A stretch of 64,000 nt of DNA from an uncultured Chloroflexia bacterium (GTDB lineage: Bacteria; Chloroflexota; Limnocylindria; Limnocylindrales; CSP1-4), in assembly GCA_963835335.1 (NCBI GenBank), contig CAWIFB010000006.1, forward strand, positions 136,084 to 200,083. Reading direction: 5' to 3'. The position numbers and the translations under genes were made by a program. Shown piece after piece: positions 16,073-48,985 of this stretch. How positions within the stretch are numbered: position 1 is the stretch's first letter; each line of letters opens with the position of its first letter. Under the pieces are notes generated by a model that worked only from the letters and a program-made list of their open reading frames with translations, was not told where the DNA came from and did no database searches.

Positions 16073-16504
16073 CTACCGAGCGGAGTCTGCCCTGCTGGCC
16101 AGCATGGCCAGGAATTCGGCCGGGGTCATGACCGGCAGGCGATCGCGCAGGTCGAGCAGGTGGGCGTCACCGGACACGAGCGCGTCGACCGCGGCGACGC
16201 GCGCGAGGTCCACCAGGTACTCGTCGTCGGGATCCGCGCTGAGCGGTGGGGCACTCGGTGCGGGGTCATCGACAATCCTGGCCTCGTGCCCGATGAGGTC
16301 GACGTAGGCGACAGCTTCGGCCAACGTGACGTAGCGAGGGAACTTCTCGCGCCCCAGGACCGCTCGGAGCTCGGCCAGGAGGGTCGGCGAGGCGACGAGC
16401 TCGAACGCGCCGTCCCGGAGCTCGAGCAGGATGGCGGCGCTCGGACCGCCCGGGCTGATCAGCGCCGAAACGAGGACGTTGGTGTCAAGAACCGCGCGCG
16501 GCAC
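16073..16504 (-). CDS. PIN-family toxin
   Basis: GTG at 16504 gives VPRAVLDTNVLVSALISPGGPSAAILLELRDGAFELVASPTLLAELRAVL. It overlaps the upstream antitoxin by 20 nt. Confidence 0.8.
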   Translation of the reverse strand: MPRAVLDTNVLVSALISPGGPSAAILLELRDGAFELVASPTLLAELRAVLGREKFPRYVTLAEAVAYVDLIGHEARIVDDPAPSAPPLSADPDDEYLVDLARVAAVDALVSGDAHLLDLRDRLPVMTPAEFLAMLASRADSAR

Positions 16505-16733
16505 GCTTCTCGGCCCGGGTGGCGTGTGTCTCCTCGACAGCCAGGCGCATCGCCTCGTCCTCGCCCAGGTCGCTGCGTGCCCACACGCCGGCCAGGACAT
16601 CGAAGCCGAGGTAGGCGCGGAGCGCGTCCTCGACGACCTCTGAGTCGCGCTTGTCGGTCCGGGCTGCCCGGACGCGAGCCGCCCGCATCACGTCCTCGTC
16701 GACGTACAGGGTCACCTTCCGCTTCGTCGTCAT
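16485..16733 (-). CDS. ribbon-helix-helix antitoxin
   Basis: MTTKRKVTLYVDEDVMRAARVRAARTDKRDSEVVEDALRAYL (RHH pattern), directly upstream of the PIN gene. Confidence 0.8.
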   Translation of the reverse strand: MTTKRKVTLYVDEDVMRAARVRAARTDKRDSEVVEDALRAYLGFDVLAGVWARSDLGEDEAMRLAVEETHATRAEKRAARGS

Positions 16734-26715: not shown

Positions 26716-26995
26716 GATCCGCCCGCTCCGTGCTCCATGGGCGCGTCCTGTCGTTTCGGGACTTTGGACCCTCGGGTCGCGCGGTCCACAGGTGGGATGG
26801 TAGGGCCACGCGAGCCTCGCGGCCCGTGGTACGAGCAAACCGACCGCCAGCTCCGACGTGCCGACCGCCGATCCGGCGAAGCCCCCGAGGCTCCGGATGC
26901 AGGCACCACCGGCCGACTCGAGCACCGGCAGGGCCGCGGGCCCGCGGTCTTCATGCCCAGGGGAACCGCGGCGCGCTACGCTCCGTCATCGACCC

Positions 26996-27719
26996 ATGCG
27001 CATACCTTCCCGCGTTGCTGCCACCCTGGCGCTCGTCGCCGTTGCCGCACTCGTTGCCGCCTGCGGCAGCTCCGCGGGCACGCCTGCGCCCACGGCGACC
27101 ATCATCCAGTCGGCTGCCGATGCCGCGCGGACGGTCGCGGACGAGGTGCCGCTGTTCGCCGGCATCGACGCCAAGGACGCCAACCTGATCGGTCAGGCCT
27201 CCTGGTACGAGGCAGTCCCCACCGAGGCCGCCAAGCCGCCGGTGCCGTGGCGCGTCACGTTCAGGGTCGGCTGGGGCGACTGCCCGGCGGGCTGCATCGA
27301 CGAGCACACCTGGACCTACGAGGTCGGCGTTGATGGCTCGGTCACCTTCGTCGAGGAGGCAGGCTCCGTCGTGCCACCGGCCGTGTTCGAGACCCTACGA
27401 GCAGCCAGCGGCGTCACCGGCGTGAGCGGTCGTGTCACGGCCGGCCCGACCTGCCCGGTCGAGCGCCCCGGCGACCCCGCGTGCCAGCCTCGGCCTGTCG
27501 CCGGTGCGGTCCTGGTCGTGACCACGCCAGCGGCGCCGAGGTCGCCCGTGTCACCACGGATGCGAGCGGCCTGTTCGGCGCCGCACTCGCGCCCGGCGAC
27601 TACACCCTCACGCCCCAACCGGTCGAGGGCCTGATGGGCACCGCGGCGCCGATGCCGTTCACGGTCAGCGACGGCGCCTGGTGTTCCAGGACGTGGCCTA
27701 CGACACCGGGATCCGCTGA
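26996..27719 (+). pseudogene. lipoprotein with carboxypeptidase-regulatory-like C-terminal domain, two frame breaks
   Basis: Signal plus lipobox MRIPSRVAATLALVAVAALVAAC. The frame changes near 27523 (…AVLVVT | ASGAEVARVTTDASGLFGAALAPGDYTL). It changes again near 27675 to reach the terminal LVFQDVAYDTGIR-stop. Confidence 0.65.
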
Positions 27720-27808: not shown

Positions 27809-29368
27809 CTACTCGACGAGGCCGACCGCGATCAGTTGCGCAACCAGATCCTGGTTGTAGCCGACGGCCAAGGTCCCCGAGCCCGTCACCGAGAACGTGT
27901 CCGCGATGATCTGCGACGGGCCGAGGTTGCCCGTGCCCTGGACCGCGACGTACCCGTTCGGCTCGTAGATCGTGCCTTGAACGTACAAGTTCGAGCCATT
28001 GCCGTTCAGCTGGAGGTCTCCGGAAGTCACACTCGGCAGGCTGCGATCCTGGAAGATGACGATGTTGGTGTAAGGGCCGGCGTCCTGGATGGGGTAGAGG
28101 TGGACGACGGCTGCTGAGCCATTGAGGCTGATCGGCTGCATGTCCCGCACGGTTGCGCCACCGCTTGTCGCAGTCGGATCCTCGGTGTTGTAGAACAGAA
28201 CGCCACCGCACTTGGCAAAGCTCTGTGGCGCGCAATCGAACGGGGTTGCTGGGAACGTGTTGATGCAGTCGACGGTGGACGTCTGCTCGCACGTCGTCGG
28301 TGGTGTCGTGCTGCTCCACGATGCACTGACGGTATAGATGTTGGCGCCGCCACCGCCGGCGTCCAGGCCCCCGCCACCGATGTAGTACAGCCCTGGCCTC
28401 AGGAAGAAGGTTCCGTTGAGGAACTGAAACCCACCCGGGTAATAGCCGGGTGACAGCAACCAGGTCGTCCCGGCATATGAATTATTGAAGGCGCATGTTG
28501 CAGGCGCCAGCGCCGTAGCTGCACTGGAGCCCCCAGGACATCCGGATGGAATGGCCGCAGCCCCGGACAGCTCCACGACCGGCGCCGCGAGGCCTGGCAG
28601 GCCCGGCGCCGGGAGGCTGAGCAGCGGGTCCGGGACGTAGGGCTGTCCCGTGCTCGGGTCCGGATCGCAGTGTCCCGTGGCGCAACTCGCGCTCCCGACG
28701 ACATCGATGACACCGCCCTCCGAGGTGACCTCAACCGAAGAGGCCCCGCCTTGATTGAATGCCCCCTGCGGGCAGGTCGCCGATGAGTCAACTTGAATGT
28801 TTCCAGACACACTGACGGTTCCAGTTCCACCGAATTTCGCGGCGGAGCATTCGGATGGATTTAAGGCGATCATCGAGTAGTCCGCAGCCACACCGCTGCG
28901 ATTTGCGGCGGTGGCCAGAACAGCGACACGCTGACCGGTGATCCCCAGCACGCCGCCAAAGATGCTCCCCCGGTTGCTGCCAATCTCAACCTCAATGAAT
29001 CCGGGCTGCCCCGCGAAGGCCGATTCGGTCCCAGGGGGAATTTGGACCTTGACCGTGGAGCCATTCGCCGCTTCCACGTTGTTGCTCGTGCCATCCCCGT
29101 AGCCGTTGATGAAGGCGACGCGCAATGCTTCGTCGACGGCGTTGGCGCAGGTCGCGAGCGACGGCGCCGCAAAGCAGCCCGACTCCACGACGTAGCGCCC
29201 ACCTGCAAGGGCGGCCGCATCGGCCGCATTCTGTTCGCTGCGGCGGTCGAGCAGCATCTGTCCGATATCGAACGCGAGCGCTGCGAAGCCGAATAGGACG
29301 ACGAGACTCAACGCGAAGATGACCAGTGATTGGCCCCGCTGTCGGGCCGAGCTAGTGGTTGATGACAA
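27809..29368 (-). CDS. TadG-like (Tad_N / TadE-G-like N-terminus) large pilus-assembly-type protein, triplet 2
   Basis: The TTG start overlaps the upstream gene by 17 nt. (M)SSTTSSARQRGQSLVIFALSLVVLFGFAALAFDIGQMLLDRRSEQNAADAAALAG. 519 aa, Cys- and Gly-rich body. Confidence 0.8.
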   Translation of the reverse strand: MSSTTSSARQRGQSLVIFALSLVVLFGFAALAFDIGQMLLDRRSEQNAADAAALAGGRYVVESGCFAAPSLATCANAVDEALRVAFINGYGDGTSNNVEAANGSTVKVQIPPGTESAFAGQPGFIEVEIGSNRGSIFGGVLGITGQRVAVLATAANRSGVAADYSMIALNPSECSAAKFGGTGTVSVSGNIQVDSSATCPQGAFNQGGASSVEVTSEGGVIDVVGSASCATGHCDPDPSTGQPYVPDPLLSLPAPGLPGLAAPVVELSGAAAIPSGCPGGSSAATALAPATCAFNNSYAGTTWLLSPGYYPGGFQFLNGTFFLRPGLYYIGGGGLDAGGGGANIYTVSASWSSTTPPTTCEQTSTVDCINTFPATPFDCAPQSFAKCGGVLFYNTEDPTATSGGATVRDMQPISLNGSAAVVHLYPIQDAGPYTNIVIFQDRSLPSVTSGDLQLNGNGSNLYVQGTIYEPNGYVAVQGTGNLGPSQIIADTFSVTGSGTLAVGYNQDLVAQLIAVGLVE

Positions 29369-29810
29369 GGGTCGACCTCGCAGTCATGCTGATCGGGGGA
29401 ACGGGCAGCGGGATGATCGTTCTGAACGTGTAGTTGGTCGTAACGGAGACGTCGTGACCGCGTGCGTTGTCAACATCCGGCCAGGCCACGACCACCTGTG
29501 ACGGTGTCAGGCCCAGACTGAACGCGGTCGCGGCAGTCTTCGCCTGGATCGCGCTGCCGGTTGGGTCTGCGCATGAGCTTGGGCTGGTCGCTCCACCCGG
29601 CATCGGGCCGCTGGGGCACAGTGAGTCGCTACCGTGCACGATCGCGTACCGTGCCCCTTCTCGGGTCGCGTTGTTCAGGACCTCGTAGGCGAACACATAC
29701 CGCCCGAACTCGATGATCCCGAAGATGAGCAGGAACAGGAGTGGCGCCGCGATGGCGAACTCAGCCAGCGCCTGGCCCCGGGCCCGTGAGCGGTCACTCT
29801 GATTCGTCAT
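29352..29810 (-). CDS. TadE/TadF-like pseudopilin, triplet 2
   Basis: MTNQSDRSRARGQALAEFAIAAPLLFLLIFGIIEFGR has a G/XXXXEF prepilin motif plus a hydrophobic helix. ATGA overlap with the upstream gene. Confidence 0.85.
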   Translation of the reverse strand: MTNQSDRSRARGQALAEFAIAAPLLFLLIFGIIEFGRYVFAYEVLNNATREGARYAIVHGSDSLCPSGPMPGGATSPSSCADPTGSAIQAKTAATAFSLGLTPSQVVVAWPDVDNARGHDVSVTTNYTFRTIIPLPVPPISMTARSTLVINH

Positions 29811-30355
29811 GGTGCGGGAAAGTCGTTGACGACGTACGAGGCGTCGCGGTCGATCGGGATGGTCCCCGGAAGACTGAAGATCCCCGCAATCCCAACACCG
29901 CCGAGGAACAGGTGGAAGTCGTAGTGGCCGGAGACGTGGACGATGCAGGGCAGGTCGCCCGCAGGTACCGGCTCTGCACAGTTGATGCCGTCATCGTTGA
30001 CCAACTCGTATGTGATCACGGGGTTCTCGCACGTGTTGTCCGGGTCGGAGGTCTGGTAGTCAGGCAGCGTGTTTGACGCAGTGCAGGCGCGGCGGTACAT
30101 GCCTGCCTCGGTAAGCGGGATGTTCGCCGACAGCCAGTTCGATCCTTGGAACGCACCGTAGTCGGCAGCTTCGCGCACGGCCGACTCCACCGTGAGCGCG
30201 GTCGTGTACAGGCGCGCGAAGTCTCCGATGGCGAGCAGCAGCAGCAGCAGGATCGGAAGGATCAGCGCCAGCTCAACGATCGCCTGCCCGGATGAGCGCC
30301 GCGAGGGATCACTCGTCCGCGGTTCGACGTCACGACGAAATGCAGGGGTCGCCAT
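29807..30355 (-). CDS. TadE/TadF-like pseudopilin, triplet 2
   Basis: MATPAFRRDVEPRTSDPSRRSSGQAIVELALILPILLLLLLAIGDFAR. ATG at 30355, with an alternative GTG at 30364. Confidence 0.8.
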   Translation of the reverse strand: MATPAFRRDVEPRTSDPSRRSSGQAIVELALILPILLLLLLAIGDFARLYTTALTVESAVREAADYGAFQGSNWLSANIPLTEAGMYRRACTASNTLPDYQTSDPDNTCENPVITYELVNDDGINCAEPVPAGDLPCIVHVSGHYDFHLFLGGVGIAGIFSLPGTIPIDRDASYVVNDFPAP

Positions 30356-30381
30356 CGTCTCCACCGGTCGATTCCACCAAT

Positions 30382-30421
30382 GAGCTGGTCGCCCCCACGA
30401 TCCCGGGCCGGCGACCAGCTC
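30382..30421. promoter_or_regulatory. 12-bp perfect inverted repeat upstream of triplet 2
   Basis: gagctggtcgcc (30382-30393) and ggcgaccagctc (30410-30421) are separated by 16 nt and lie 27-66 nt upstream of the start at 30355. Confidence 0.35.
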
Positions 30422-30563
30422 GCGCGTGCGGTCTCCGCACAGAGCGGGACTATGGTCCTGGGACCTTGCGATCGTCCTTACACGCTCGACCGAGCAGCCG
30501 GCCAGGCCAGCGAGTACGAACGGACCATTGTGGAACGCGCCCGGTCGAACGACGCTGATCCGC

Positions 30564-30791
30564 ATGAAGAAGCGAATCGCAGCCAGTCTGCTCTGGTTCT
30601 ACTGCACGTGGTGGGCGTGGGCAATGATCGCGGCGCTGACCGGCCTGCCGGCGCTTGCTGGCCCGGTGATCGGAGCAGCGGTGGCCGCTCTGGTTGGTGT
30701 CGACCCGTTCGAGAAGATCTGGCCCCGCCCGGCCCGGCGCGAGCAGGACTCAGCGGGGGTGTCCGCAGCTGAAGCCCAGCTGGTCGCCTGA
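30564..30791 (+). CDS. small two-TM membrane protein, hypothetical
   Basis: MKKRIAASLLWFYCTWWAWAMIAALTGLPALAGPVIGAAVAALVGV... lies between triplets 1 and 2, convergent with triplet 1. Confidence 0.5.
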   Translation: MKKRIAASLLWFYCTWWAWAMIAALTGLPALAGPVIGAAVAALVGVDPFEKIWPRPARREQDSAGVSAAEAQLVA

Positions 30792-30808
30792 CGTCGCTCA
30801 CCAACAGG

Positions 30809-30846
30809 CTGACGCCCGCTCATCCCCGAGACCGAGCGGGCGTCAG
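30809..30846. terminator. bidirectional GC-rich hairpin between convergent genes
   Basis: A 13-bp perfect stem, ctgacgcccgctc / gagcgggcgtcag, with a 12-nt loop. It lies between the stop at 30791 (+) and the stop at 30878 (-). Confidence 0.5.
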
Positions 30847-30877
30847 TGATTCTCGGGCGGGCGTGGCGCCCGCGGGA

Positions 30878-31909
30878 CTATTCGACCAGGCGCGCGACCG
30901 GGACCCCGAACGTCGCCGACGACCCGCCGGCGGAGATCGTCAGGGGCAGCGAGCTCGTCTCGTCGGACACGAAGTAGCCGGCCAGCTGCTCGCCGTCGTG
31001 GCCCTCGCAGTCGCTGTTGGCCGTGTCCAGGTGCCAGATCCAGAAGCCGACCAGGTTCCCGTCGTCGTCGTTGATCGCCACCGGGATGTCGGCGCCGCTC
31101 GGGTACATGTCGAGCAGCGCGTGGCACACGGACGTCATGTCGCCATGGTTGTGTGGCCCGAGGTCCATGCCGAGGTAGACCTCGACCTGGAACTCGCCGC
31201 CATCGATGATGCCCTTGGCCGTCGCTGCATCGACGTTGCAGGCGCCGCCACTGACGCAGAACGTGGTCCAGGCGAACTGCTCGCTGTTGATGGGCCATGC
31301 GCTGTTGGGGTCGCATTTGGCGGGATTGGGGTCGCAGTAGACGTTCGAGGTGGCGCCGTGGTCGGTGACGGCCCGGTAGTTGAACATGATCGGCGACAGG
31401 CCGTTCGAGACGCCGTTCGCGATCCCGCCCACGGACACGCCGCGTGCGGTCACGCCGAACTGGTTCATGCCCACGACCGACGCGAAGCTGTTCTGGTGCG
31501 GCCGGTCCACGACGACCTCGACCCAGCACGGATAGAGCGCGGGCGTGCTGCAGTCGTTGGTGCTCAGGGGTCCGGACTGTGACCCGCCGGGTGCGTACTT
31601 GCCGCTGGTGGGCGGGATGTTGACGGTGACCTCGGCCGCCTGGTAGCCGTTCGCGACCGCGGAGTCGATGGCCGTCTGGATGATGGTGGCCCGGTCGGCG
31701 CCGTTCGCCTCGGCAGTCGCGCCGGCGAGGGCGGCCACGTCGGCGACCTTCTGCTGGGTCCGGAACTGGCCCCACGACCCGCCGACATCGACCACGAGGC
31801 CGACCGCCAGCAGGAGCGTCACCAGCATCAGCGTGAACAGGACCAGCACCTGGCCATCGGCCCGGTCGAGGCCGTCGCGGGCGCGGGAGAGGAGGGCGCG
31901 CGGGATCAT
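30878..31909 (-). CDS. TadG-like (Tad_N N-terminus) protein, triplet 1
   Basis: MIPRALLSRARDGLDRADGQVLVLFTLMLVTLLLAVGLVVDVGGSWGQFRTQQKVADVAALAG. ATGA overlap with the upstream gene. Confidence 0.8.
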   Translation of the reverse strand: MIPRALLSRARDGLDRADGQVLVLFTLMLVTLLLAVGLVVDVGGSWGQFRTQQKVADVAALAGATAEANGADRATIIQTAIDSAVANGYQAAEVTVNIPPTSGKYAPGGSQSGPLSTNDCSTPALYPCWVEVVVDRPHQNSFASVVGMNQFGVTARGVSVGGIANGVSNGLSPIMFNYRAVTDHGATSNVYCDPNPAKCDPNSAWPINSEQFAWTTFCVSGGACNVDAATAKGIIDGGEFQVEVYLGMDLGPHNHGDMTSVCHALLDMYPSGADIPVAINDDDGNLVGFWIWHLDTANSDCEGHDGEQLAGYFVSDETSSLPLTISAGGSSATFGVPVARLVE

Positions 31910-32349
31910 TGCAGGATCTCCTGTTCCGTGGAGGACCCGACGGTGACGGGGCCGAAGGAGCTGGCGACGGGCGTCAGCAGCGAGAACGACTGGGCGGTCT
32001 GCACGCGGACGATGTAGCCCACCTTGCAGAAGGTGGTGGACTGGTCGGGGGCGACCCCGGTCGCGGGGTCGATGCAGGTCACCGTCACGGTGAGCGGGGC
32101 CTGGAGGCCGACGGACGCGTCCGCGATCGCCGCGCTGATCGGCCCCGTCGTGGCGTCGCACGGCGTCGACGACTGGAAGCACGCGGTGCTCGCCGTCCTC
32201 GCGACGGACCGCGCGATCTGGGACATCTGGTTGTAGGCAAAGATCGCGCGCCCGCCGTCGATGACCCCGAACACGAGGACCAGGAACAGCGGAAGCACGA
32301 GCGCGAACTCGACCAGGCTCTGGCCGCGCGCATCTGATCGGCGTCTCAT
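31906..32349 (-). CDS. TadE/TadF-like pseudopilin, triplet 1
   Basis: MRRRSDARGQSLVEFALVLPLFLVLVFGVIDGGR. ATGA overlap with the upstream ORF. Confidence 0.85.
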   Translation of the reverse strand: MRRRSDARGQSLVEFALVLPLFLVLVFGVIDGGRAIFAYNQMSQIARSVARTASTACFQSSTPCDATTGPISAAIADASVGLQAPLTVTVTCIDPATGVAPDQSTTFCKVGYIVRVQTAQSFSLLTPVASSFGPVTVGSSTEQEILQ

Positions 32350-33322
32350 CTGTAGGTGACCACGACTTTCTGGGTGATCGGGTAGCACACGCCGGGCGTG
32401 AGGTCGTTGCCCAGCCCGTCGGTCTGGCCCGTCACGACGTCGTTGGTGTGGCCGTTGGGCGAGAAGTTGCCGGCGGCGAACCCGGCCGTCGTCCATTCGT
32501 CCCGGGCATCGGACACGGTCTCGTCCGAGCCCGAGTTGCTCACGACGAGGTCTGGCATCGGGGCGAAGCCCGTGTGCAGACCGACCCGCTGGGGGACGCG
32601 CTGGCCGACGCGGACGCACTGGCCGACGCGCTCGCCGACGCGCTCGCCGACGCCGACGCGCTCGAGGACGACGTGGCGCTCGCGCTGGACGACGGGATCA
32701 GGGTCGCCGGATCCGGGAGCGCGATCTGGTCAGCTGCGACGCTTGCCCGGATCGTGATCCCGTTGCCGAGGAACACTCGCAGGATCGGCATCAGGAAGTC
32801 GAACGGCATCGAGACGCCGACGCGGCTGCGTGTGCCCGGCTGTGGATCCGGCTGGCACGCGACCGTCGCGCCGGTCAGGTCCTCGCAGGAGACCTGGACG
32901 TTGGCGAAGTCGACGGTGGCGGCCGAGTTCCGGTTCTCGAAGGTGATCGCGCAGCCCACGCGGTTGGCCGTCGACGCTGGGTTGCTGCAGGTGCCCGTGT
33001 AGGAGGTTGGCTCGCGCGCCGCGACCAGCACGCCCGCACGCGCCGCGTTCTCGGCGGTCACCTGCGTGTAGAACAGCCGCCCGAAGTCCACGGTCGTGGC
33101 CAGGAGCATGAGCAGGACCAGCGCGACGACCGAGAACTCGACGAGCGCCTGGCCGCGCGACCGGCCCGGCCGGCGAAGGAATCGGAGGGCGGGTGCGGCG
33201 ACACGGCCGGGTCTCCCCGGCCTCGCGTGATCGGGCGGTGACGCCCGCAACGGACGCGATCGCGACGGTGCGCCTTTTCGGCGCGCGCGAACACCGGCCC
33301 ATACGGGCCATAAGGACGACAT
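32346..33322 (-). CDS. TadE-like pseudopilin with Ser/Ala linker and C-terminal PASTA-like module, triplet 1 (frameshift at about 32591-32595)
   Basis: ...RSRGQALVEFSVVALVLLMLLATTVDFGR, then the linker SSSASATSSSSASASASASASASASASASASPSGS. After a break at a 5-nt homopolymer the ORF 32346..32558 continues (PDLVVSNSGSDETVSDARDEWTTAGFAAGNF...). The start at ATG 33322 is uncertain. Confidence 0.7.
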
Positions 33323-33378
33323 CGACGTTTCCCCCGGCGATGCAGTGATGCAGTTGGCATTTGGGAAGGTGACGTCCT

Positions 33379-33402
33379 GACCTTGCGGTGAACCTTGCCG
33401 TG
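33379..33402. promoter_or_regulatory. tandem 12-bp direct repeat in the divergent Tad intergenic region
   Basis: gaccttgcggtg followed by aaccttgccgtg (10/12 identical, head to tail), in the 358-bp region between the divergent starts at 33322 and 33681. Confidence 0.3.
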
Positions 33403-33680
33403 TTGCGTTCGGGCCACGAAACGAGCAGCGGGGCCCATGACCCCGTCGGGACCTTCGGTGCATGCCACATCGCGGGGTGCGCGGGGTCCGCCCGCGGGGG
33501 GCGCCGGCCCCCCTCCCGGCAGGCGCTCCTCGCATCGTGGTTTCGAGCCGGGGATCGCCCGGTACTTCCTTCTCCGGGGACTGCCCGCTTTGGGCTATGC
33601 ACTCGCGCACCGTTTCAAGTCAGGGTGCAAGGGGCGACCACGACGATCGCCTGGCAACAACCCGCTGCAGGTCAATCCAG

Positions 33681-34595
33681 ATGCGCCACAGGTTCCCAAC
33701 AAGCTGGCGACCGCGCCTCGCACTCCGGCCACGGTCGCGGGGGCAGGCCCTGGTCGAGCTTGCCCTGATCCTGCCGGTGATGCTCGTCCTGTTCGCCTCG
33801 GCCCTCGATCTCGGCCGCATGTTCTACAGCCAGATCACGATCGCCAACGCGGCCAAGGAGGGCGCCCTCGAGGCGTCCCGCAACCCGACCTCGTTCGACA
33901 ACACGCAGCCCTGCAACGCCACGACGAACCGGGTGATCTGCCTGGTGATCAACGAGGCCAAGGGCTCGTTCTACTCGATCACCCCGGCCGACGTCACCCT
34001 CGTCTGCTCGCCGGATCCGTGCCCGTCGGATCCCGCGGTGGGAGACACGGTCACGGTCACGGTGACCGGCAAGTTCACGCTGATCACGCCCTTGCTCGCG
34101 TCCTTCGTCGGGGGCCAGACGATCAACCTCTCGTCCTCGGCGCTGGCATACCTGCGTGTCCGGCCCCAATTCGCGGCCGGCTCCACGCCAATTCCGGTTC
34201 CGAGCACCGATCCGAGCGCCGATCCGAGCACCGATCCGAGCGCCGATCCGAGCGCCGATCCGAGCGCCTCCATTCCAGCCTGTGTTACGCCGACCGTGAC
34301 CGGCAGCATCGTCGTGAGCCCGACCAGCGGCGGCTACTACCACGGTCCCGGCAATCCGGGGACGTTGTTTACCTTCACCGCGCCGACGGTCGATCCGCAG
34401 CCCGGCTGCACCTTCACGTACACCTGGAGCTACGGCGATGGTGGCAGCGGATCGGGCGCGACCACGACCTACCTGTACAACGCGGCCGGCTCGTCCGGCA
34501 GCGGCACCTCGAGGTACTTTCCGGTGACCCTGACGATCTCCGCCTCGGGTGTCGCGACCAACTGGCAGGGCACGATCAACGTGCCGGTGCTCTGA
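33681..34595 (+). CDS. TadE-like pseudopilin with Asp-Pro-Ser repeat linker and C-terminal PKD-like domain, triplet 3
   Basis: MRHRFPTSWRPRLALRPRSRGQALVELALILPVMLVLFASALDLGR. Linker PSTDPSADPSTDPSADPSADPSAS (12-bp units, 34209-34268). PKD-like TFTYTWSYGDGGSGSGATTTYLY...YFPVTLTIS. Confidence 0.8.
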   Translation: MRHRFPTSWRPRLALRPRSRGQALVELALILPVMLVLFASALDLGRMFYSQITIANAAKEGALEASRNPTSFDNTQPCNATTNRVICLVINEAKGSFYSITPADVTLVCSPDPCPSDPAVGDTVTVTVTGKFTLITPLLASFVGGQTINLSSSALAYLRVRPQFAAGSTPIPVPSTDPSADPSTDPSADPSADPSASIPACVTPTVTGSIVVSPTSGGYYHGPGNPGTLFTFTAPTVDPQPGCTFTYTWSYGDGGSGSGATTTYLYNAAGSSGSGTSRYFPVTLTISASGVATNWQGTINVPVL

Positions 34596-35047
34596 TGAAC
34601 GAACGACGAGATCCGGATCAGCACGGCCAGGCCCTGGTCGAGTTCTCGCTCGCCATCGTCGTGTTCCTGATGCTGATGATGGGCGTGTTCGACTTCGGCC
34701 GTGCCATCTACCAGTACAACGGCGTGGCGCAGGCCGCCCGCGAGATCGCACGCGTCACGGCGGTGCACCCGGGCGCGGACTTCACGACGACCGCCGGCCG
34801 GAGCGCCGAGACGCAGGCCGTGATCGCGACCCAGAAGGGTCTCATCCCCAGCCTGGGCGATCCCACGATCGAGTGCGTCCAGATCGACGGGACGGTCATC
34901 ACCAGACCCTGCACTCCGAACGATTGGATCCGGGTGCAGATCGCCGCGACGTACACCCCGATCACGCCCCTCCTCGGCCTGGTCGGGACGTGGACCCTGT
35001 TCTCATCGTCTACCAGCTCGCAACTCCAGCTGATCGGAGCCTCCTGA
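34595..35047 (+). CDS. TadE/TadF-like pseudopilin, triplet 3
   Basis: MNERRDPDQHGQALVEFSLAIVVFLMLMMGVFDFGR. The start overlaps the upstream stop (TGATG). Confidence 0.85.
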   Translation: MNERRDPDQHGQALVEFSLAIVVFLMLMMGVFDFGRAIYQYNGVAQAAREIARVTAVHPGADFTTTAGRSAETQAVIATQKGLIPSLGDPTIECVQIDGTVITRPCTPNDWIRVQIAATYTPITPLLGLVGTWTLFSSSTSSQLQLIGAS

Positions 35048-36034
35048 TGGATAACAACGCGCAGCGCGGCGAGCGCGGCCAGATCATCGTCGTGTTCGCG
35101 CTGGCGCTCGTGGCAATCGTCGCCATGGTGGGCCTGATCCTCGACGGCGGCAGCTCGTTCGCCCAGCGGCGCTCCGAGCAGAACGCCGTCGACCTGGCCG
35201 CTCTCGCGGCCGGCAATGACCTGATCGTCAACCAGGGCACTGCCGACTGGGTGGGCACCGCGCGCACGGTCGCAAGGCAGAACGGATTCGAGCACGGCGT
35301 CAACGGCATCACCGTGGACGTCACCTGCGAGAACTGCCCGGGACAGGTGCTCAATTCTGGCGTGGCGGGCGTGCAGGTCACGGTCGGGATCACCGCGCCG
35401 CACCAGAACGCCTTCGCGGGCGTGGTTGGGATGCCCACCTGGGACGTCAGCACGACGGCCACGTCGAAGACCGGCTGGCCGGACACCGCCACCGGACCGG
35501 CCCCGTTCATTCTTTCCAAGGAGGCGTTCGACCCCGCCGGCAAGGCGAAGGTCTGCTCCGACCCGGCCAACCCGTGCAACTTCAACCACCCCACGACGTC
35601 GGAAGGAGACACACCGCAATCGGCGACGGAGTTCGCGTGGACCGACTTCCATTACGACACGCCGTGCCACGTCGCTGGCAATGTCGACGACCAGGACCTC
35701 CAGGACTACCTCGAATTCATCGGCGAGCTTCACGACCACGCTCGACTTCGGGTGCTACATCGCGCAGCACAACAGCGGCCAGATGAACAACATCACAGCG
35801 ACGCTCGCGAGCCTCGCCCCGATCACGTTTCCGGTTCCGATCGTGGACACGAGCGGCAATTACGTCGGCTGGGCCTCGTTCGTCCTCGCAAGCGCGACAG
35901 CCAACGGGTCCAACGGGGTCCTGACCGGCTACTTCGAGACCGGTGACCGCCAGGACCTGCGCCTGGACGTCAGCGGCGCCGGGTTCGGCACCTCGACGTA
36001 TGGCGGGACACCCGTCCTCAAGCTGATCAACTGA
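35047..36034 (+). CDS. TadG-like (Tad_N N-terminus) protein, triplet 3 (frameshift near 35720-35730)
   Basis: MDNNAQRGERGQIIVVFALALVAIVAMVGLILDGGSSFAQRRSEQNAVDLAALAAG. The C-terminal third (SFTTTLDFGCYIAQHNSG...VLKLIN) continues in ORF 35426..36034 and parallels the C-terminus of the 30878..31909 protein. Confidence 0.75.
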
Positions 36035-36062: not shown

Positions 36063-36090
36063 GACCCGTCCCTCGGATCCAGATCGTTGA

Positions 36091-36114
36091 CCGGCGCGGC
36101 GACGGCCGCGCCGG
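36091..36114 (-). terminator. hairpin after the histidine kinase gene
   Basis: ccggcgcggc-gacg-gccgcgccgg ends 2 nt from the kinase stop at 36116. Confidence 0.45.
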
Positions 36115-36115
36115 T

Positions 36116-37591
36116 TCACGATTCCTCGGGCGCCTCGGCGGGGAGGTGGATCGTGAAGGCCGCCCCGCGACCGGGCTCGTCGGGCTCCAGCACCAGGTCA
36201 CCGCTCATCGCCCGGCACAGCTCCCGCGAGACGTAGAGGCCGAGACCGGATCCTTCGCCGCTCGGCCGCGCCGCGCCGCGCTCGAAGCGCTGGAACAGCC
36301 GCTCCCGGTCCGCCGCCGCGACGCCGGGTCCATGGTCCGCGATGGTGATCGCGAGGTCCGAGTCCACGGAGTCGATGGAGATGGTCACCTCGACCGCGGC
36401 CCGGCCGCCGTATCCCACGGCGTTGTCGAGCAGCGCCCACAGCACCTGGTCGAGCTGGTCCGGGTCGGCGAGCGCGAGCCAGCCCTCCGAGCGGTCATCG
36501 ACCGTGAACGGCACCTCTCCGGCGCCCAGCGCCTCCCAGGTGCGGCGGACGCGCGCCGACGGGGAGAACACCTCGAGGCGCGGGCGGAGCACGCCGGACT
36601 GGATCCGGCTGACGGTGAGCAGCTGGCGGACCATCCGCGACAGCCGGTCTGCCTGCTCGGTGATGATCCCCAGCCGTCGGTCCGGAGCCTCGGCGGCCAG
36701 CTGCTGGGCGTAGCCGCGGATGCTGGCCAGGGGCGTCTGCAGGTTGTGCGACACGCCGCGGAGGAAGTCGTCCTTGGCCTCGTCGAGCGAGACCAGCCGC
36801 GCGTTCTGCTGCTCGACACGCGCGTACAGCTGGGCATTGGACATGGCCGCCGCGATCTCGATCGCGAACAGCTCGAACAGGTCCTGGTCGGCGCGCTCCC
36901 AGGTGCGCGTCGCCGGCACGTGGCCGACCAGCGCGCCGAGGACGCCGCCGGCGGCCGACAGCTCGGCGCGCACGGGTCGCGGCTCGCCGGGGACGACCTC
37001 CTCCTCCTCGATCTGCGCCGGGTCGACGAGCAGGATCTCGCAGTCGACCATCCCGAACACGACCCTCGCCCGGTTGCCGGCGCGTCGGGCGAGGACGTCG
37101 GGTCGCTCCTGGAGCGTCGTCTCGGCGAGCGCCTCGAGGACCCGCCGGAGCTCGCGGTTGCGCCGCTCGAGCACGCGGGCGAGCCGGTTGTGGCTCTCGG
37201 CCAGGCGGCTGAACTCGTCATCGCCGGGGAGGTCGAGCGGGGTCGTCAGATCGCCCGAGGACACCTGCTCGACCGCGCGGGCGATCTGCCGGAGCGGCGC
37301 GCCCAGGTCCGCGGCCAGGATCGCGGCGAGGAGGACGCCGAACACGACGGCGATCGCGATCGCCAGCAGGAGGACCCTGGCCACGGTGGTGTCGCCACCC
37401 TGGTTGGCGCCCGTCACCACCAGGACGACGATGCCGAACCCGGCGACGGGCAGGACCGCGGCCGAGATCAGGCCCAGGGTGAGGCGCGCCCGGAACCCAG
37501 GCCCGGACCGGCGGTAGGCGGGTCGCGAGCCGGCGGGCTCGGACGTCGCAGCGCCACCCGCGCCCGCCTCCGCGCCCGCGTCCTGCGTCAC
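36116..37591 (-). CDS. sensor histidine kinase (two TM with ~8-aa outer loop, HAMP, GAF-like, HisKA, HATPase_c)
   Basis: The GTG at 37591 overlaps the regulator stop (GTGA). H-box FLRGVSHNLQTPLASIRG, N-box LLDNAVGYG, G-boxes DHGPGV and GSGLGLYV. The TM pair is separated only by ANQGGDTT. Confidence 0.85.
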   Translation of the reverse strand: MTQDAGAEAGAGGAATSEPAGSRPAYRRSGPGFRARLTLGLISAAVLPVAGFGIVVLVVTGANQGGDTTVARVLLLAIAIAVVFGVLLAAILAADLGAPLRQIARAVEQVSSGDLTTPLDLPGDDEFSRLAESHNRLARVLERRNRELRRVLEALAETTLQERPDVLARRAGNRARVVFGMVDCEILLVDPAQIEEEEVVPGEPRPVRAELSAAGGVLGALVGHVPATRTWERADQDLFELFAIEIAAAMSNAQLYARVEQQNARLVSLDEAKDDFLRGVSHNLQTPLASIRGYAQQLAAEAPDRRLGIITEQADRLSRMVRQLLTVSRIQSGVLRPRLEVFSPSARVRRTWEALGAGEVPFTVDDRSEGWLALADPDQLDQVLWALLDNAVGYGGRAAVEVTISIDSVDSDLAITIADHGPGVAAADRERLFQRFERGAARPSGEGSGLGLYVSRELCRAMSGDLVLEPDEPGRGAAFTIHLPAEAPEES

Positions 37592-38322
37592 GCGCCCGAC
37601 GCCGGCTGCGCGGTGACCAGCCGGTACCCGATCCCCCGGACCGTCAGCAGGTGGGCGGGCCTGGCGGGATCGACCTCGACCTTCTGGCGCAGGCGGCGCA
37701 TCGTCACCCACACGTAGCTGGGGTCCGCGTCCTCGGTATCGACCCAGCCCCGGGCCAGCAGCGTCTCCGTGGTCACCGTCTGGCCGAGGTTGGCGGCCAG
37801 GGCGTACAGCAGGCGCGACTCGGTGGGCGTCAGCGACACGACGTTGCCGCTCACGATCGCCTCGCGCCGGTGGAGCTCGAGCGACAGGTTCGGCCCCAGC
37901 TCCAGCCGCTGCCGTGGCACCCGGTCGCCGAGCCGTCGCAGGACCCGCTGGATCCGCGCCCGCAGCTCCGGGTAGTGGTACGGCTTGGTGATGTAGTCCT
38001 CGGCGACCTCCTCGAGCAGGTCCGCCTTCGAGTCCGCGGTGTCGATCGCCGACAGGACGATGATCGGGAGGTCGGCCCGCGCCTTGACCTCGCGGGCGAG
38101 CGTGAGCCCGTCCATCCGCGGCATCAGCATGTCGATCACCAGCAGGTCCGGCCACTGCTGGGACAGGCGCCGCAGCGCCTCGTCACCGTCGCGCGCGGTG
38201 ACGACCTCGTACCCGTCCGCGCGCAGCTGGTCGGCGAGGATCACCAGCAGGTTCGGATCGTCGTCGACGATCAGGATCCGGGGTGCCGAGACGCCGTACA
38301 GGCTGGGTCCGCCGTGCAGCAT
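37588..38322 (-). CDS. OmpR/PhoB-family response regulator
   Basis: ATG at 38322. Receiver RILIVDDDPNLL...PDLLVIDMLMP...KPY. Winged helix LTPTESRLLYALAANLGQTVT...VWVTMRRLRQKVE...TVRGIGYRL. Confidence 0.9.
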   Translation of the reverse strand: MLHGGPSLYGVSAPRILIVDDDPNLLVILADQLRADGYEVVTARDGDEALRRLSQQWPDLLVIDMLMPRMDGLTLAREVKARADLPIIVLSAIDTADSKADLLEEVAEDYITKPYHYPELRARIQRVLRRLGDRVPRQRLELGPNLSLELHRREAIVSGNVVSLTPTESRLLYALAANLGQTVTTETLLARGWVDTEDADPSYVWVTMRRLRQKVEVDPARPAHLLTVRGIGYRLVTAQPASGA

Positions 38323-38438
38323 GTGGCGAGGATAGCAGCGGCCCCGACGGCCTCGGCGGCCCCGATCGCCTCGCCGTCGTCGCTCGGGCCCCGCCCGCCA
38401 GCCCGGCCGAGCGACGCCCACCCGTACACTCTCACCCC

Positions 38439-40157
38439 ATGCCGGACCTGCCCATCCGCACCTACGAGCGCCGCCCGGCCGAGGTTCATGACTGGGATCC
38501 TCGTGCGGTCGAAGTCGCGCGCCGCGTTGCCGCGATGGTCGATTCCGAGCGCCCGGGCACCCGGGTGGAGCACGTCGGCAGCACCGCGGTCACCGGCCTG
38601 CCCGGCAAGGGGATCATCGATCTCGGGATCGAAGCCTCCCCGGACGAGATCCCCCAGGTCACGGACGCGCTGCTGGGCCTGGGCTTTCAGCGCCAGGGCG
38701 GGATGACCCCGTTCCCGGCCACGCGCCCGATGCTCGTGGGCGCGATGGTCGAGGGCGGCGAGGAGTTCCGGATCCACCTCCACGTGATGCCGCCGGCGCG
38801 GCACGAGCTGCCGGAGCTGGTGGGCTTCCGCGACGCGCTCCGCGCCGATGCGTCGTTCCGGGCCGCCTACGCGGAGACGAAGCTCCGGATCGTCGGGGCG
38901 TCGACGGGCATCGAGCCGCAGGAGCTGTACACGGCCCACAAGGCCGACTTCGTCAAGGACGCGCTGTACCGGCTGGGGATCCGTCGCCCGCCGGCGGATG
39001 CGCCGGAGCCGCTGGCGCCGGGCGCCGTGATCGGGATCATGGGCGGCGGGCAGCTCGGCCGGATGCTCGGCCAGGCCGCGCGCTCGATGGCGTACCGGGT
39101 GGTCGTGCTCGATCCCGACCCCCGGTGTCCGGCCGCCGCCGTTGCCGACGAGGTGATCGTTGGCGCGTACGACGACGTCGACGCTGCGATCCGCCTCGGC
39201 GAACGCTCGGACGTCGTGACCTATGAGCTCGAGCACGTGGGCGAGGCGGCGGCTGCCGCAGCGGGATCGCGGGCGCCGCTCCGGCCCGGTATCGCGGTGC
39301 TGCGCGCGACGCAGGACCGGCTTGCCGAACGGCGGTTCATCCGGGACGTGGGTGAGGCGAGCGCACCGTGGCGCGAGGTGCGCGGGATCGCCGACGCCGA
39401 GGCTGCGGCAGCGTCGCTGGGCTACCCGGTCCGGCTCAAGGTCCCGACCGGCGGGTACGACGGGCGCAGCCAGGTCCGGATCACCGCGCCCGCCGAGGTC
39501 GCGGCCGCGGTCGAGGCGCTGGGCGGCGCGGACGGGAGCCCCCTGCTGATGGAGCAGGAGATCGACTTCGAGGCCGAGCTGTCCGTGGTCTGCGCCCGGG
39601 ACCGCTCGGGCCGGTCCATCGCCTTCCCGGTCTCACGCAACGTCCACGATGACGGGATCCTGGTCGAGAGCGTGGCGCCGGCGCCGGTCCACGAGCTGGT
39701 CGCCAACTCGGCCGTCGAGGTCGCGGACAGCCTCGCGCGGCGCGTGGACCTGGTGGGCGTCATGACCGTCGAGCTGTTCCAGCTGCGGAGCGGCGGCCTG
39801 CTGATCAACGAGCTGGCGCCGCGCGTCCACAACTCGGGGCACTGGACGATCGAAGGGGCGCGGACCTCGCAGTTCGAGCAGCATCTCCGGGCGATCCTGG
39901 GTCTGCCGCTGGGATCGGTTCGACCGCACGGGCCGACCGCGATGGTCAACGTGCTGGGCACGGGAGCCGACCGTCCGGCACGCCTTGCCGGCCTCGACGC
40001 CGCGCTGCGCGATCCGGACGTCCACGTGCACCTCTACGACAAGCGACGGGTGTTCGAGCGGCGCAAGATGGGGCACGTGACGGTCGTCGGCAACGATCCC
40101 GACGACGTGGTCGCCCGCGCCCGACAGGCACGCGCGGCACTCCGCTGGGAGGATTGA
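38439..40157 (+). CDS. purK: GrpB-domain / PurK (N5-carboxyaminoimidazole ribonucleotide synthase) fusion protein
   Basis: One uninterrupted ORF. The N-terminal ~190 aa are GrpB-like ([23 protein letters not shown]...RIHLHV). PurK follows from [18 protein letters not shown], including [16 protein letters not shown]. Confidence 0.8.
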
Positions 40158-44534: not shown

Positions 44535-46145
44535 ATGCCCGGCCGCACCTACAGCGCCGCAACGAACGCCATCCGCGCCGGCCTCGTTCGCTGGTACACG
44601 GCGGTCGCCGTGCTGTGGATCGCTGTCGCTGCCGCGGCCGCGTGGCTCGTGGGTCCGGAACCGACTCCCGGTCTCGCGGTGTCGATGCTGCTCGCGGCGC
44701 TTGTGATCGTGCTCTCCGGCATCACGCTGCGCCGGATCCTGGGCCAGATCACGCTCGTCGGCCTCCAGCAGGATGAGCTGCGGTCGGCCTTCGACCGCGC
44801 GAGGCTCGATGCGCTCGCCGACGGGCTGACCGGCCTCGGCAACCACCGGGCGTTCCAGGAGGAGCTCGAGCTCCGGGTCACCACGGCCGATGCCGACTCG
44901 ACGCGGTTCGCCCTGATGATCCTCGATGTCGATGAGCTCAAGCTCGTCAACGAGCTCCAGGGCCACGCCGCGGGCGACGCGCTGCTGCGGGCCACCGGCC
45001 GGATCATCACCGCCGAGCTCCGCCGGCAGGATCGCGGCTTCCGGATCGGGGGCGACGAGTTCGCCGTCGTGCTCCGCGAGTGCGACGCCGACGAGGCCGT
45101 GGCGATCGCGCGACGGATGCTCGCCAGCGCGCTGAGCGGCGGTTCGGGAACGCTGGGCGTGGCGCCGTTCTCGCTGACCATCGGCGTGTCGTCGATGCCC
45201 GGACTGGCCCACGACCGCAAGCAGCTGGTCCACCAGGCCGACGCCGCGCTGTTCTGGGGAAAGCGCCATGGCCGGACGGACGTCCAGCTGTTCGACCCCA
45301 TGCGCCATGGCATCGCGGAGGACTCACGGTCGCTCGAGGAGCTGGCCGCGGCGGTGTCGCGCGTTGCCGCGGGCCGACTGCTGGCACCGGTCTACCAGCC
45401 GATCCACTGCCTCCGGACGGGCCGCGTCCTGGGCTACGAGGGGCTCGTCAGGCCAAAGCCCGGGTCCGGCTTCGCCGACGCCAGCGCACTGTTCGTGGCG
45501 GCCGAATCGACGGGTCACACGGTCGAGCTCGACCTCGCCAGCCTGGATGCCGTGCTGTCCGGGGCTCGGACGCTTGATCCCGATCTGTACCTGTCCGTCA
45601 ACCTGTCACCGCGATCGCTCGAATCCGACTCATTCAAGCCGCACGAGCTGCTGGCCCTGGCCCGCCAACGCGACATCGACCCGATGCGGATCGTGCTCGA
45701 GCTGACCGAGCGCGAGGCCGTGGAAGACCTCGACCGGCTTCGCGAGTCGCTGGCGATGCTTCGCCGCCACGGCGTCCGGATCGCAGCCGACGATGTGGGC
45801 GCCGGCAACGCGGGCCTGCGGCTGCTGCGCGAGCTCGAGTTCGACATCATGAAGATCGACCTGTCGCTGATCCAGGCGGGCGCTCGCGATGATCCGTCGC
45901 AGGCCGTCCTGCGCGCGCTCCTGGAGCTCGCCCGCCGGCGCGGCCAGATGGTCGTTGCCGAGGGCGTCGAGACGCCGGACCAGCTGGTCAGCGTCATCGA
46001 GCTCGGGCTCGACGCGGGCCAGGGGTACCTGCTCCATCGCCCGGGTCCGAACCTGGACGCCGGGCCGCTCGACCTGGCGCGGCTCGCGTTCCCGCCGGAT
46101 CCGGCGCTCACCCCCGCCCGCGCGTCGGTTCCCGCCGCCAGCTGA
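44535..46145 (+). CDS. membrane-anchored GGDEF-EAL protein
   Basis: Two TM, GGDEF domain (LTGLGNHRAF...RIGGDEFAV), and EAL domain (YQPI...GYEGLVRP, DDVGAGNAG, EGVET). Confidence 0.9.
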   Translation: MPGRTYSAATNAIRAGLVRWYTAVAVLWIAVAAAAAWLVGPEPTPGLAVSMLLAALVIVLSGITLRRILGQITLVGLQQDELRSAFDRARLDALADGLTGLGNHRAFQEELELRVTTADADSTRFALMILDVDELKLVNELQGHAAGDALLRATGRIITAELRRQDRGFRIGGDEFAVVLRECDADEAVAIARRMLASALSGGSGTLGVAPFSLTIGVSSMPGLAHDRKQLVHQADAALFWGKRHGRTDVQLFDPMRHGIAEDSRSLEELAAAVSRVAAGRLLAPVYQPIHCLRTGRVLGYEGLVRPKPGSGFADASALFVAAESTGHTVELDLASLDAVLSGARTLDPDLYLSVNLSPRSLESDSFKPHELLALARQRDIDPMRIVLELTEREAVEDLDRLRESLAMLRRHGVRIAADDVGAGNAGLRLLRELEFDIMKIDLSLIQAGARDDPSQAVLRALLELARRRGQMVVAEGVETPDQLVSVIELGLDAGQGYLLHRPGPNLDAGPLDLARLAFPPDPALTPARASVPAAS

Positions 46146-48296: not shown

Positions 48297-48698
48297 TCAG
48301 GCCCCCTCGACGACGATGCCCATCGCGCGGGCGGCGTCAGCCTGGCGCCGATCGAAGGTCAGCATCACCAGCGGTTGCGGCAGGCGGTCTGCCGCGGCGA
48401 GGTGCAGCGCATCGAGCGTGCGAAGCTGATACCGACAGCCGAGCTCGGATGCCCGCTCGAGGCAGCCAGGGTCGACCGGGACGACATGACAGCGCTCCCA
48501 GTCCTCGCGAAGACCGCGCCATACGGCGGCGTCCTCGCCGCGATCGAAGCCGAGACGGCACAGCGTGATCTCGGCCTCGGCCCGGGCCACGGCGGATGCG
48601 ACCCACTCGGGATCCTCGTCCATCCGCCGAGCGACGAACGGGGAACCCTCCTCCTCGACATACCGCTTGACGAGCGCAGAGGTGTCGAGGAACAGCAT
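48297..48698 (-). CDS. vapC: PIN-domain toxin VapC
   Basis: ATG at 48698 gives MLFLDTSALVKRYVEEEGS...RTLDALHLAAA...LTFDRRQ. Confidence 0.85.
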   Translation of the reverse strand: MLFLDTSALVKRYVEEEGSPFVARRMDEDPEWVASAVARAEAEITLCRLGFDRGEDAAVWRGLREDWERCHVVPVDPGCLERASELGCRYQLRTLDALHLAAADRLPQPLVMLTFDRRQADAARAMGIVVEGA

Positions 48699-48985
48699 CA
48701 GCGCTCGCGCAATGCGGCCAGGACGTCGGCGCTCGATCGGCCCGACGGCGCGGGCACGGGCTTCGGGAGACTCGGCAGCGTCCGGAGTCGGGGCGCGGCC
48801 ACGCCACCGGTCGCGATCAGCTCGTCGAGGCTGGTGGCCCGTTCGGCCGAGCTGACCGGCCCGATCTCGGCCGCCGGGACGCCGTCGACGGTGATGATGA
48901 GCCGCTCGCCGGCGTGCGCGCGCCGCACCACCCGGCTCACCTGGTTCCTCAGCTCCCGGATGGCGATCCGCTCCATGGCCGGCAT
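48698..48985 (-). CDS. Phd/YefM-type antitoxin
   Basis: MPAMERIAIRELRNQVSRVVRRAHAGERLIITVDGVPAAEI. The stop overlaps the VapC start. Confidence 0.8.
   Translation of the reverse strand: MPAMERIAIRELRNQVSRVVRRAHAGERLIITVDGVPAAEIGPVSSAERATSLDELIATGGVAAPRLRTLPSLPKPVPAPSGRSSADVLAALRER

Follow-up and report, generated by a model that had tools for sequence, protein, structure and literature searches.

A 64-kb stretch of DNA from an uncultured Chloroflexota bacterium (contig CAWIFB010000006.1; the whole stretch is called the window below) carries nine genes for Tad-type pseudopilins, organised as three modules that each consist of two TadE-like genes and one TadG-like gene. By analogy with the exchangeable pilus tips of Myxococcus xanthus, we propose that these modules encode alternative tip or initiation complexes for one Flp pilus machine encoded elsewhere, a reading to which we give a probability of about 0.6, while the broader assignment of the region as minor-pilin modules of a Tad-type filament is made with high confidence. 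Interchangeable tip or priming complexes for a distant pilus had already been suggested in the original prediction, an annotation drawn from the bare sequence, and this emerged from our comparisons as the best-supported reading.

Nine pseudopilin genes in three modules

The nine genes are as follows (a slash in a motif marks the cleavage site).

Set 1, core module
S1a, 32346..33322, minus strand: TadE-like pilin, 326 aa when repaired (PF07811, 47.3 bits), in which a long Ser/Ala linker leads to a small domain of no known family at the C-terminus; frameshifted
S1b, 31906..32349, minus strand: short TadE-like pilin, 147 aa (PF07811, 59.5 bits), with an ATGA overlap on each side
S1c, 30878..31909, minus strand: TadG-like large minor pilin, 343 aa, Leu at +5 (PF13400, 29.4 bits)
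Set 2, accessory module
S2a, 29807..30355, minus strand: TadE-like first gene, 182 aa (PF07811, 52.5 bits), motif G/QAIVEL
S2b, 29352..29810, minus strand: short TadE-like pilin, 152 aa (PF07811, 66.9 bits)
S2c, 27809..29368, minus strand: TadG-like large minor pilin, 519 aa, TTG start, Ile at +5 (PF13400, 44.0 bits)
Set 3, accessory module
S3a, 33681..34595, plus strand: TadE-like first gene, 304 aa (PF07811, 49.2 bits), with a PKD domain at the C-terminus and a linker of the type (P-S-[TA]-D)n
S3b, 34595..35047, plus strand: short TadE-like pilin, 150 aa (PF07811, 53.9 bits), with a TGATG overlap on each side
S3c, 35047..36034, plus strand: TadG-like large minor pilin, 328 aa when repaired, Val at +5 (PF13400, 40.1 bits after repair); frameshifted

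Profile searches placed all nine proteins in two related families: S1a, S1b, S2a, S2b, S3a and S3b matched TadE (PF07811) at 47.3-66.9 bits, and S1c, S2c and the repaired S3c matched the TadG N-terminus (PF13400, Tad), against curated Pfam cut-offs of 22.9 and 22.3 bits, respectively. Nine such matches inside 8.2 kb are far above chance. The match of S2c to Tad_C (21.1 bits) fell just under its cut-off of 22.1, and the C-terminus of S3a scored 28.7 bits against PF18911 (PKD_4; cut-off 27). No von Willebrand factor A (vWA) domain was found in the nine proteins with Pfam, and the NCBIfam models gave only sub-threshold matches of TIGR03816 (Rv3654c-like TadE) to the TadG N-termini.

All nine proteins carry a class III signal, with a short basic leader followed by G/Q-x-x-[VIA]-x-[FL] and a hydrophobic helix. 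The motif takes the form G/Q-[AS]-[LI]-[VA]-E-[FL] in all six TadE-like proteins and precedes about 20 hydrophobic residues. Position +5 is Glu in these six; the three TadG-like proteins have Leu, Ile or Val there, and each also contains R-x3-Q-x2-[AV]D-x-AALA. The cleavage-site Gly (-1) and the following Gln (+1) were invariant in an alignment of 35 TadG homologues, and the ratio of nonsynonymous to synonymous substitution rates (dN/dS) was 0.10-0.14 for S1b and S1c when compared with two relatives, which is the mark of purifying selection.

Each module is built to the same plan: gene a encodes a TadE-like pilin with a C-terminal add-on, gene b a short plain TadE-like pilin (147-152 aa) and gene c a large TadG-like pilin (328-519 aa) that lacks the Glu at +5 and bears a big variable head. 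The genes follow one another in small-small-large order, and they are translationally coupled within the triplets, where stop and start codons overlap as ATGA (32346-32349, 31906-31909 and 29807-29810) or TGATG (34593-34597 and 35045-35049), S2b further overlapping S2c by 17 nt. All-vs-all comparison revealed that Sets 1 and 3, which are transcribed divergently, are paralogous position by position (a, 37% identity over 209 aa; b, 33% over 132 aa; c, 30% over 337 aa for the repaired S3c), and that Set 2 is more distant. The original prediction had described this gene order with its overlaps, the triplet organisation, the six TadE/TadF-like and three TadG-like proteins, and the leader and cleavage motif with its lost Glu at +5, and on all these points our Pfam matches, motif inspection and sequence comparison agree with it.

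Tandem repeats of 12 nt encode the (S-A)n linker of S1a (32583-32654) and the (P-S-[TA]-D)n linker of S3a (34187-34280), and the lengths of both linkers could change through repeat slippage with the frame kept. An invertible switch or shufflon was considered and rejected: the inverted and direct repeats are accounted for by the N-terminal coding segments that the genes share and by the repeats of the linkers, and no recombinase lies nearby. Likewise, a by-eye guess that the C-terminal domain of S1a is PASTA-like was dropped, as the domain gave no Pfam match at E<=1 and no PDB sequence match at E<=10.

Two frameshifted genes

The original prediction listed nine open reading frames (ORFs), and although all nine genes are real, two of the listed intervals are not open frames. 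The lengths of 33322-32346 (S1a, 977 nt) and 35047-36034 (S3c, 988 nt) are not divisible by 3, and a 1-nt correction is therefore needed in each gene. In S1a, reading from the N-terminus meets a stop at 32540, and the C-terminal domain is found in a different frame that extends to 32346, with the switch inside the Ser/Ala linker, where a C5 tract and other short G/C runs occur (about 32560-32600). In S3c the N-terminal frame stops at 35946 and the C-terminus is read in another frame to 36034, the shift falling near 35715-35725.

Both frameshifts are most likely assembly indels, because the thiolase gene of the same window is split in a like manner, the genes of relatives are intact and dN/dS is low. 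The thiolase is divided into a Thiolase_N part (53430-54368, plus strand) and a Thiolase_C part in another frame (54365-54691, plus strand, starting from profile position 20), which points to single-base indel errors in this assembly; a related assembly, that of locus L016, is full of split genes. After repair, S1a can be aligned from residue 1 to residue 326, in one frame, with positions 8608-9543 of locus L001 (67% identity) and in a single frame with its orthologues in L002, L003 and L005 as well, while the repaired S3c aligns over its full length to the single-frame TadG genes of L016 (45%), L011 (42%) and L007 (37%). In the closest relative, L017 (94% identity in TadG), S1a is also frameshifted, at a different site, and has its linker and C-terminal domain in one frame. 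Were the array a partly decaying relic in which S1a and S3c had become true pseudogenes, this would explain why both genes are out of frame, yet the split thiolase, the fragmented L016 assembly, the intact S1a orthologues in four loci, the different site of the L017 shift, the full-length matches of S3c and the purifying selection on S1b and S1c together make decay highly improbable.

Public assemblies of relatives fuse or split the same genes, with a kinase-TadE fusion in L001 (6976-9546) and many fragments in L016, and the protein P0097, considered as a natural TadE-TadG fusion, was rejected as an artefact of frameshifted translation. Database architectures for the genes of TadE/TadG modules should be read with caution.

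Large and variable heads on the TadG-like pilins

The window derives from a metagenome-assembled genome of a Candidatus Limnocylindrales-like member of the Chloroflexota. S1c has 141 homologues, the named ones all from Chloroflexota or Limnocylindrales, and its relatives occur in eight species-representative genomes, all of uncultured Chloroflexota; S2c has 571, the named ones almost only from metagenome-assembled genomes of Candidatus Limnocylindrales or Chloroflexota. The best matches to S1c and S2c are 93-94% identical, and an exact-sequence look-up of S2b gave no record. A search with the S1c head (residues 91-343) retrieved only 62 representatives among 1.84 billion clustered proteins, and the full-length matches among them are proteins of about 300-360 aa in which the position of the head is unchanged. 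The S1c head is a lineage-restricted domain.

AlphaFold2 (AF2) models of S1c and S2c predict a pilin-like fold with a long N-terminal helix and a large head. The S1c model (35-sequence alignment; mean predicted local distance difference test score, pLDDT, 86.9) has a 54-residue N-terminal helix (15-68) and a beta-rich head, and the S2c model (41-sequence alignment; pLDDT 86.3) a 51-residue helix (7-57) and a long, beta-strand-rich, solenoid-like head. In Foldseek searches the S1c model matched nothing in the PDB (best E 0.73; GspK was not matched) and nothing among the viral models of BFVD (best E 0.073). The C-termini of otherwise dissimilar TadG types are alike (..RLVE, ..GLVE, ..KLIN, ..QLIK and ..QLVR), and this ..[RGKQ]L[VI][ENK] ending is a predicted strand in the models (E337-341 in S1c, E511-517 in S2c). 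Such a shared strand is in line with the finding that the C-terminal beta-strand of TadG/CpaL is needed to license assembly (PMC13533445).

The sole significant PDB match of the S2c model was ComZ (6QVI), the tip-associated DNA receptor of Thermus thermophilus (PMC6561018), with E-values of 7.7e-4 and 3.0e-3 and probabilities of 0.85-0.89. The S2 module at least could on this account be a DNA-binding tip for natural transformation, that is, part of a competence pilus and not an adhesin; the title of one paper, "Novel Flp pilus biogenesis-dependent natural transformation" (PMC4322843), points to such a use of Flp pili, and a role of this kind would be compatible with the alternative-tip reading. 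We regard it as improbable, since the better E-value of the ComZ match (7.7e-4) comes with template modelling (TM) scores of only 0.22-0.26 and 10-11% identity, beta-solenoids are common as adhesin scaffolds, and the Pfam scans of the window found no com genes nearby.

Recurrence of the modules in related loci

The window was compared with 19 related loci (L001-L019) at a scale of 10-28 kb. The TadE-TadE-TadG (E-E-G) module, with its genes on one strand, recurs in all 19, at one to four modules per locus: one in L002 and L012, two in L003 (divergent, as in the window), three in L007, L008 and L009, as in the window itself, and four in tandem in L005 (GCA_038245515.1). Arrays of one to four triplets are thus the rule in this Chloroflexota lineage, and the layout is no isolated case.

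In this lineage Set 1 forms the conserved core module, and Sets 2 and 3 are accessory and lie in a variable island. Orthologues of Set 1 were present in all loci of the synteny group (55-95% identity in TadG; 51-89% for S1b in L001-L005), and the composition of Set 2 is atypical: in this window of about 70% G+C, the G+C content at third codon positions is 0.76-0.80 in Set 2 (0.80 in S2a) and 0.88-0.95 in Set 1, Set 3 and the neighbouring genes. The DNA of L017 is 88.6% identical to that of the window over 33273-30811, diverges 67 nt past the stop codon of the core TadG gene and carries there a different TadE gene and a 529-aa TadG. Modules have been gained, lost and replaced between loci. The TadG proteins of these loci have at least eight unrelated head types, the heads being the most divergent parts of the module proteins, and in relatives gene a can be 500 aa or longer, with a CLIPPER_2-type match.

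The modules usually adjoin the same OmpR-type two-component system, which in the window is encoded by the following pair of genes.

Sensor histidine kinase, 36116..37591, minus strand: HAMP, HisKA and HATPase_c domains (Pfam); its GTG start at 37591 overlaps the stop of the response-regulator gene
OmpR-type response regulator, 37588..38322, minus strand: Response_reg and Trans_reg_C domains (Pfam); paired with the kinase

The kinase borders the modules in L001, L003, L005, L009 and L016, and the synteny of the response regulator is kept in L001, L003, L005 and L012. The full order purE / GrpB-purK, OmpR-type regulator, histidine kinase, [E-E-G]n, lipoprotein-like gene and SulP transporter is found in L001, L003, L005 and L016. 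Judged by this synteny, the two-component system is the likely regulator of the modules.

In other Limnocylindrales genomes, a triplet of the S2c type occupies a second conserved site, in L015 (8747-11431), L018 (8741-11440) and L019 (9029-11500), where the order is rhomboid, SRAP (DUF2321 in L019), triplet, a gene of no known family together with an extracytoplasmic function (ECF) sigma gene, and M16 peptidases. Orphan modules can therefore occur in more than one place within a genome of this lineage, at two loci or more. The position of this triplet by an ECF sigma gene hints at separate regulation and perhaps separate use, and so at a situation in which every module has its own Tad machine or filament type to prime, or in which the modules are redundant primers without a role in specificity. 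We hold either to be unlikely: there is no sign of a second machine in the lineage, a range of one to four modules among close relatives fits add-on tips better than pairs of machine and primer, and it is the head domains that diverge most.

Absence of Tad machinery near the modules

The window encodes no recognisable machinery for a Tad pilus, as the original prediction had stated for the 64 kb. Among about 70 ORF translations from across the window there was no Pfam match of the T2SSE, T2SSF, Peptidase_A24, Flp_Fap, secretin or TadZ type, a six-frame scan of the 64 kb found no Flp-type motif outside the nine genes, and tblastn with seven real CpaF proteins gave no match in the window or in any related locus. 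Likewise, within 10 kb of the modules the gene tables of the 19 related loci name neither an Flp pilin nor TadA/CpaF, TadB/C, TadZ or a prepilin peptidase. The modules are therefore orphan throughout the lineage, at least at the scale of 10-28 kb. A search with a hand-written CpaF consensus was uninformative, the best 120 of 8000 matches being 74-83% identical and none of these named Chloroflexota or Limnocylindrales, and a literature search for pili in Limnocylindria or Ellin6529 found nothing relevant.

Modules that never adjoin Tad machinery in 19 loci, and that are accompanied by a conserved small membrane protein of 75 aa (described below), might serve no Flp pilus at all and form instead a short pseudopilus or other envelope structure, either alone or with a type IV filament machine that is not of the Tad type. 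The bolder version would be a lineage that has no Flp/TadA machine and whose triplets build a structure of their own. A structure other than an Flp pilus is nevertheless very unlikely in our judgement. The class III signal, which requires a prepilin peptidase, is strictly conserved, all TadE/F/G sets studied so far work with Flp pili, another member of the Chloroflexota, Litorilinea aerophila, has a tad operon and thin pili, and the Tip1-3 clusters of Myxococcus are also orphan and yet serve a Tad-like pilus.

A model for alternative pilus tips

In the model that we favour, a TadV-type prepilin peptidase would cut after the conserved Gly of all three proteins of a module, and a, b and c would then form a heterotrimer in the membrane with TadG at its apex, as predicted for CpaJ/K/L and KilL/M/N and by analogy with GspI-J-K. 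The conserved C-terminal strand of TadG would complete the trimer, which would prime the polymerisation of Flp, the major pilin, by a TadA/B/C machine whose genes lie elsewhere, and would stay at the pilus tip. The exposed heads would differ between modules and comprise lineage-specific alpha/beta heads (S1c and S3c), a ComZ-like beta-solenoid (S2c), a PKD domain (S3a) and a small domain of no known family (S1a); because the modules would expose different heads, one machine could make pili of different tip specificity. The adjacent OmpR-type two-component system would control the modules.

Several observations weigh against this model. The partner machine is assumed to be encoded elsewhere, given that machinery is missing from the window and from within 10 kb of the modules in 19 loci; two of the nine genes are frameshifted in the assembly; the S1c model has no structural relative in the PDB, GspK included, and the TM-scores between S2c and ComZ are low. 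Control by the two-component system is read from gene neighbourhood, and the neighbourhood differs in L002, L015 and L018, where this synteny is absent.

A more specific version of the alternative-tip model, which we offer tentatively, is a dedicated tip-switching island under two-component control. Competing E-E-G complexes would prime one Flp machine, the module that is expressed would set what the pilus binds, and strains would acquire, lose and exchange accessory modules at one fixed hotspot downstream of the core.

Neighbouring genes and other features

Three further features lie within or at the border of the island.

Small conserved protein, 30567..30791, plus strand: 75 aa (MKKRIAASLLWFYCTWW...), between the core module and Set 2, with two predicted hydrophobic (probably transmembrane) segments
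Divergent intergenic region, 33323..33680, no strand: separates Set 1 on the minus strand from Set 3 on the plus strand, presumed to hold both promoters
Hairpin, 36083..36122, no strand: 18-nt arms and a 4-nt loop, located where the genes for S3c and the histidine kinase converge; likely a bidirectional terminator

Homologues of the 75-aa protein lie beside modules in seven loci, namely L001, L003, L005 (5343-5594), L007 (11064-11288), L008 (5776-5994), L009 (6847-7038) and L017 (2593-2811), so that the protein accompanies the modules in most multi-module loci. The family pattern is M-K-K-R..LWFY..W..GAMIA..GP.LG.AAA..GDP..IW, which contains no prepilin motif (G-XXXX-E[YF]), and neither Pfam nor NCBIfam gave a match; the protein may be an accessory part of the locus. 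The promoters in 33323..33680 are placed by gene geometry, as a consensus-based sigma-70 scan of the cluster found no consensus site.

The island is bordered by a lipoprotein-like gene (26990-27634, plus strand; signal ..LVAACGSS), which has no Pfam match in the window and is conserved in place in L001, L003, L005 and L008, there with weak or full CarboxypepD_reg matches. On the other side, a single ORF (38283-40157, plus strand) joins a GrpB domain to a complete PurK (N5-CAIR synthetase), and the same architecture is found in L001 and L003, directly upstream of purE. A GGDEF-EAL protein is encoded about 8.5 kb from the cluster (44535-46145, plus strand); cyclic-di-GMP enzymes often regulate pili. 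Genes of the toxin-antitoxin type are unusually dense in the window (2003-2652, 4567-5324, 5801-6175, 8374-9517, 9818-10201, 16073-16600 and 48297-48995); six or more of them code for PIN-domain proteins, and others for a MazF/PemK toxin, a Phd/YefM antitoxin, a ribbon-helix-helix (RHH) protein and a DUF5615/PIN_10 protein.

Comparison with known systems

Akin to the CpaJ/CpaK/CpaL proteins of Caulobacter crescentus and to TadE/TadF/TadG of Aggregatibacter, each module combines two TadE-type pseudopilins with one large minor pilin of the TadG type. For the Caulobacter proteins a trimeric tip complex is predicted, and deletion of cpaJ or cpaK leaves cells without pili (PMC12607857); the C-terminal beta-strand of CpaL is needed for assembly, like that of its PilK (GspK-family) homologue in the type II secretion system (T2SS; PMC13533445). 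The Caulobacter and Aggregatibacter proteins represent the single-set version, the papers cited describing one CpaJ/CpaK/CpaL set with a vWA head on CpaL; the window has three sets, no vWA domain and no machinery in 64 kb.

The predicted S2c structure may resemble the ComZ-PilA2 tip of Thermus thermophilus (6QVI) in that it joins a pilin helix to a large head of the beta-solenoid type that would fit only at a filament tip, as the authors of the ComZ structure argued for its beta-solenoid head (PMC6561018). ComZ, however, belongs to a competence-associated pilus and not to a Tad pilus, and its match to S2c has the low identity and TM-scores given above. In cyanobacteria, a beta-solenoid "tip plug" has been proposed for PilX subunits.

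Alternative minor-pilin sets that prime or cap filaments and set their function offer a further parallel. In Synechocystis, two minor-pilin core sets prime two specialised type IV filaments, and in the T2SS, GspK lacks Glu5 and caps the solved GspI-J-K tip complex, much as the TadG-like pilins of the window, without Glu at +5, would form the apex. These sets differ from the present modules in belonging to the PilIJK/GspIJK families, not TadE/G, and in working with different machinery.

The closest parallel is the Kil system of the predatory bacterium Myxococcus xanthus, in which four paralogous TadE/F/G-like kilLMN triplets provide interchangeable pilus "Tips" (Herrou et al., Nat Commun 2025; PMC12075869). 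KilL is an extended, KilM a short and KilN a large pilin, the extra domain of KilN having no structural homology in the PDB, and three of the triplets lie in tip-gene clusters of their own, apart from the kil-gene cluster II that holds the fourth (PMC12075869). Both systems thus have several paralogous triplets per genome, each made of a short, an extended and a large pilin whose variable C-terminal head lacks a PDB homologue, and both keep their triplets mostly (Myxococcus) or, in the window and related loci, entirely (Chloroflexota) away from the pilus machinery. Since the kil tip1-4 genes are restricted to Myxococcota (PMC12075869), the Chloroflexota modules are analogues and not orthologues or members of that family, and the exchange of tips, genetically shown in Myxococcus, is here proposed by analogy. 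The gene order also differs, a-b-c being extended, short and large in Chloroflexota, as do the head domains and the host, which is uncultured and presumably non-predatory; nor did the Pfam scans of the window find type III secretion system (T3SS) genes, and no T3SS* link like that of the Kil system is seen.

The original prediction knew of no described counterpart to the layout, and its claim to novelty is overtaken by the 2025 work on Myxococcus and by the finding that such arrays are ordinary in this lineage. If our reading is right, it leaves the current view of how Tad pili work unchanged and extends the principle of an adaptable pilus tip, shown in 2025 in Myxococcus and inferred structurally for some pathogens, to abundant uncultured soil Chloroflexota. 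Here the principle would take a more compact form, with up to four tandem tip modules beside a sensor-regulator pair, and the E-E-G module would serve as a clear genomic marker for finding such islands. For work on the binding targets of Tad pili in soil, the loci would supply a natural collection of eight or more types of TadG head, several of which have no known fold. What is new relative to Myxococcus, where the triplets lie in separate clusters, is the tandem layout of several modules side by side in one island, the two-component system next to them, the host phylum and the head domains.

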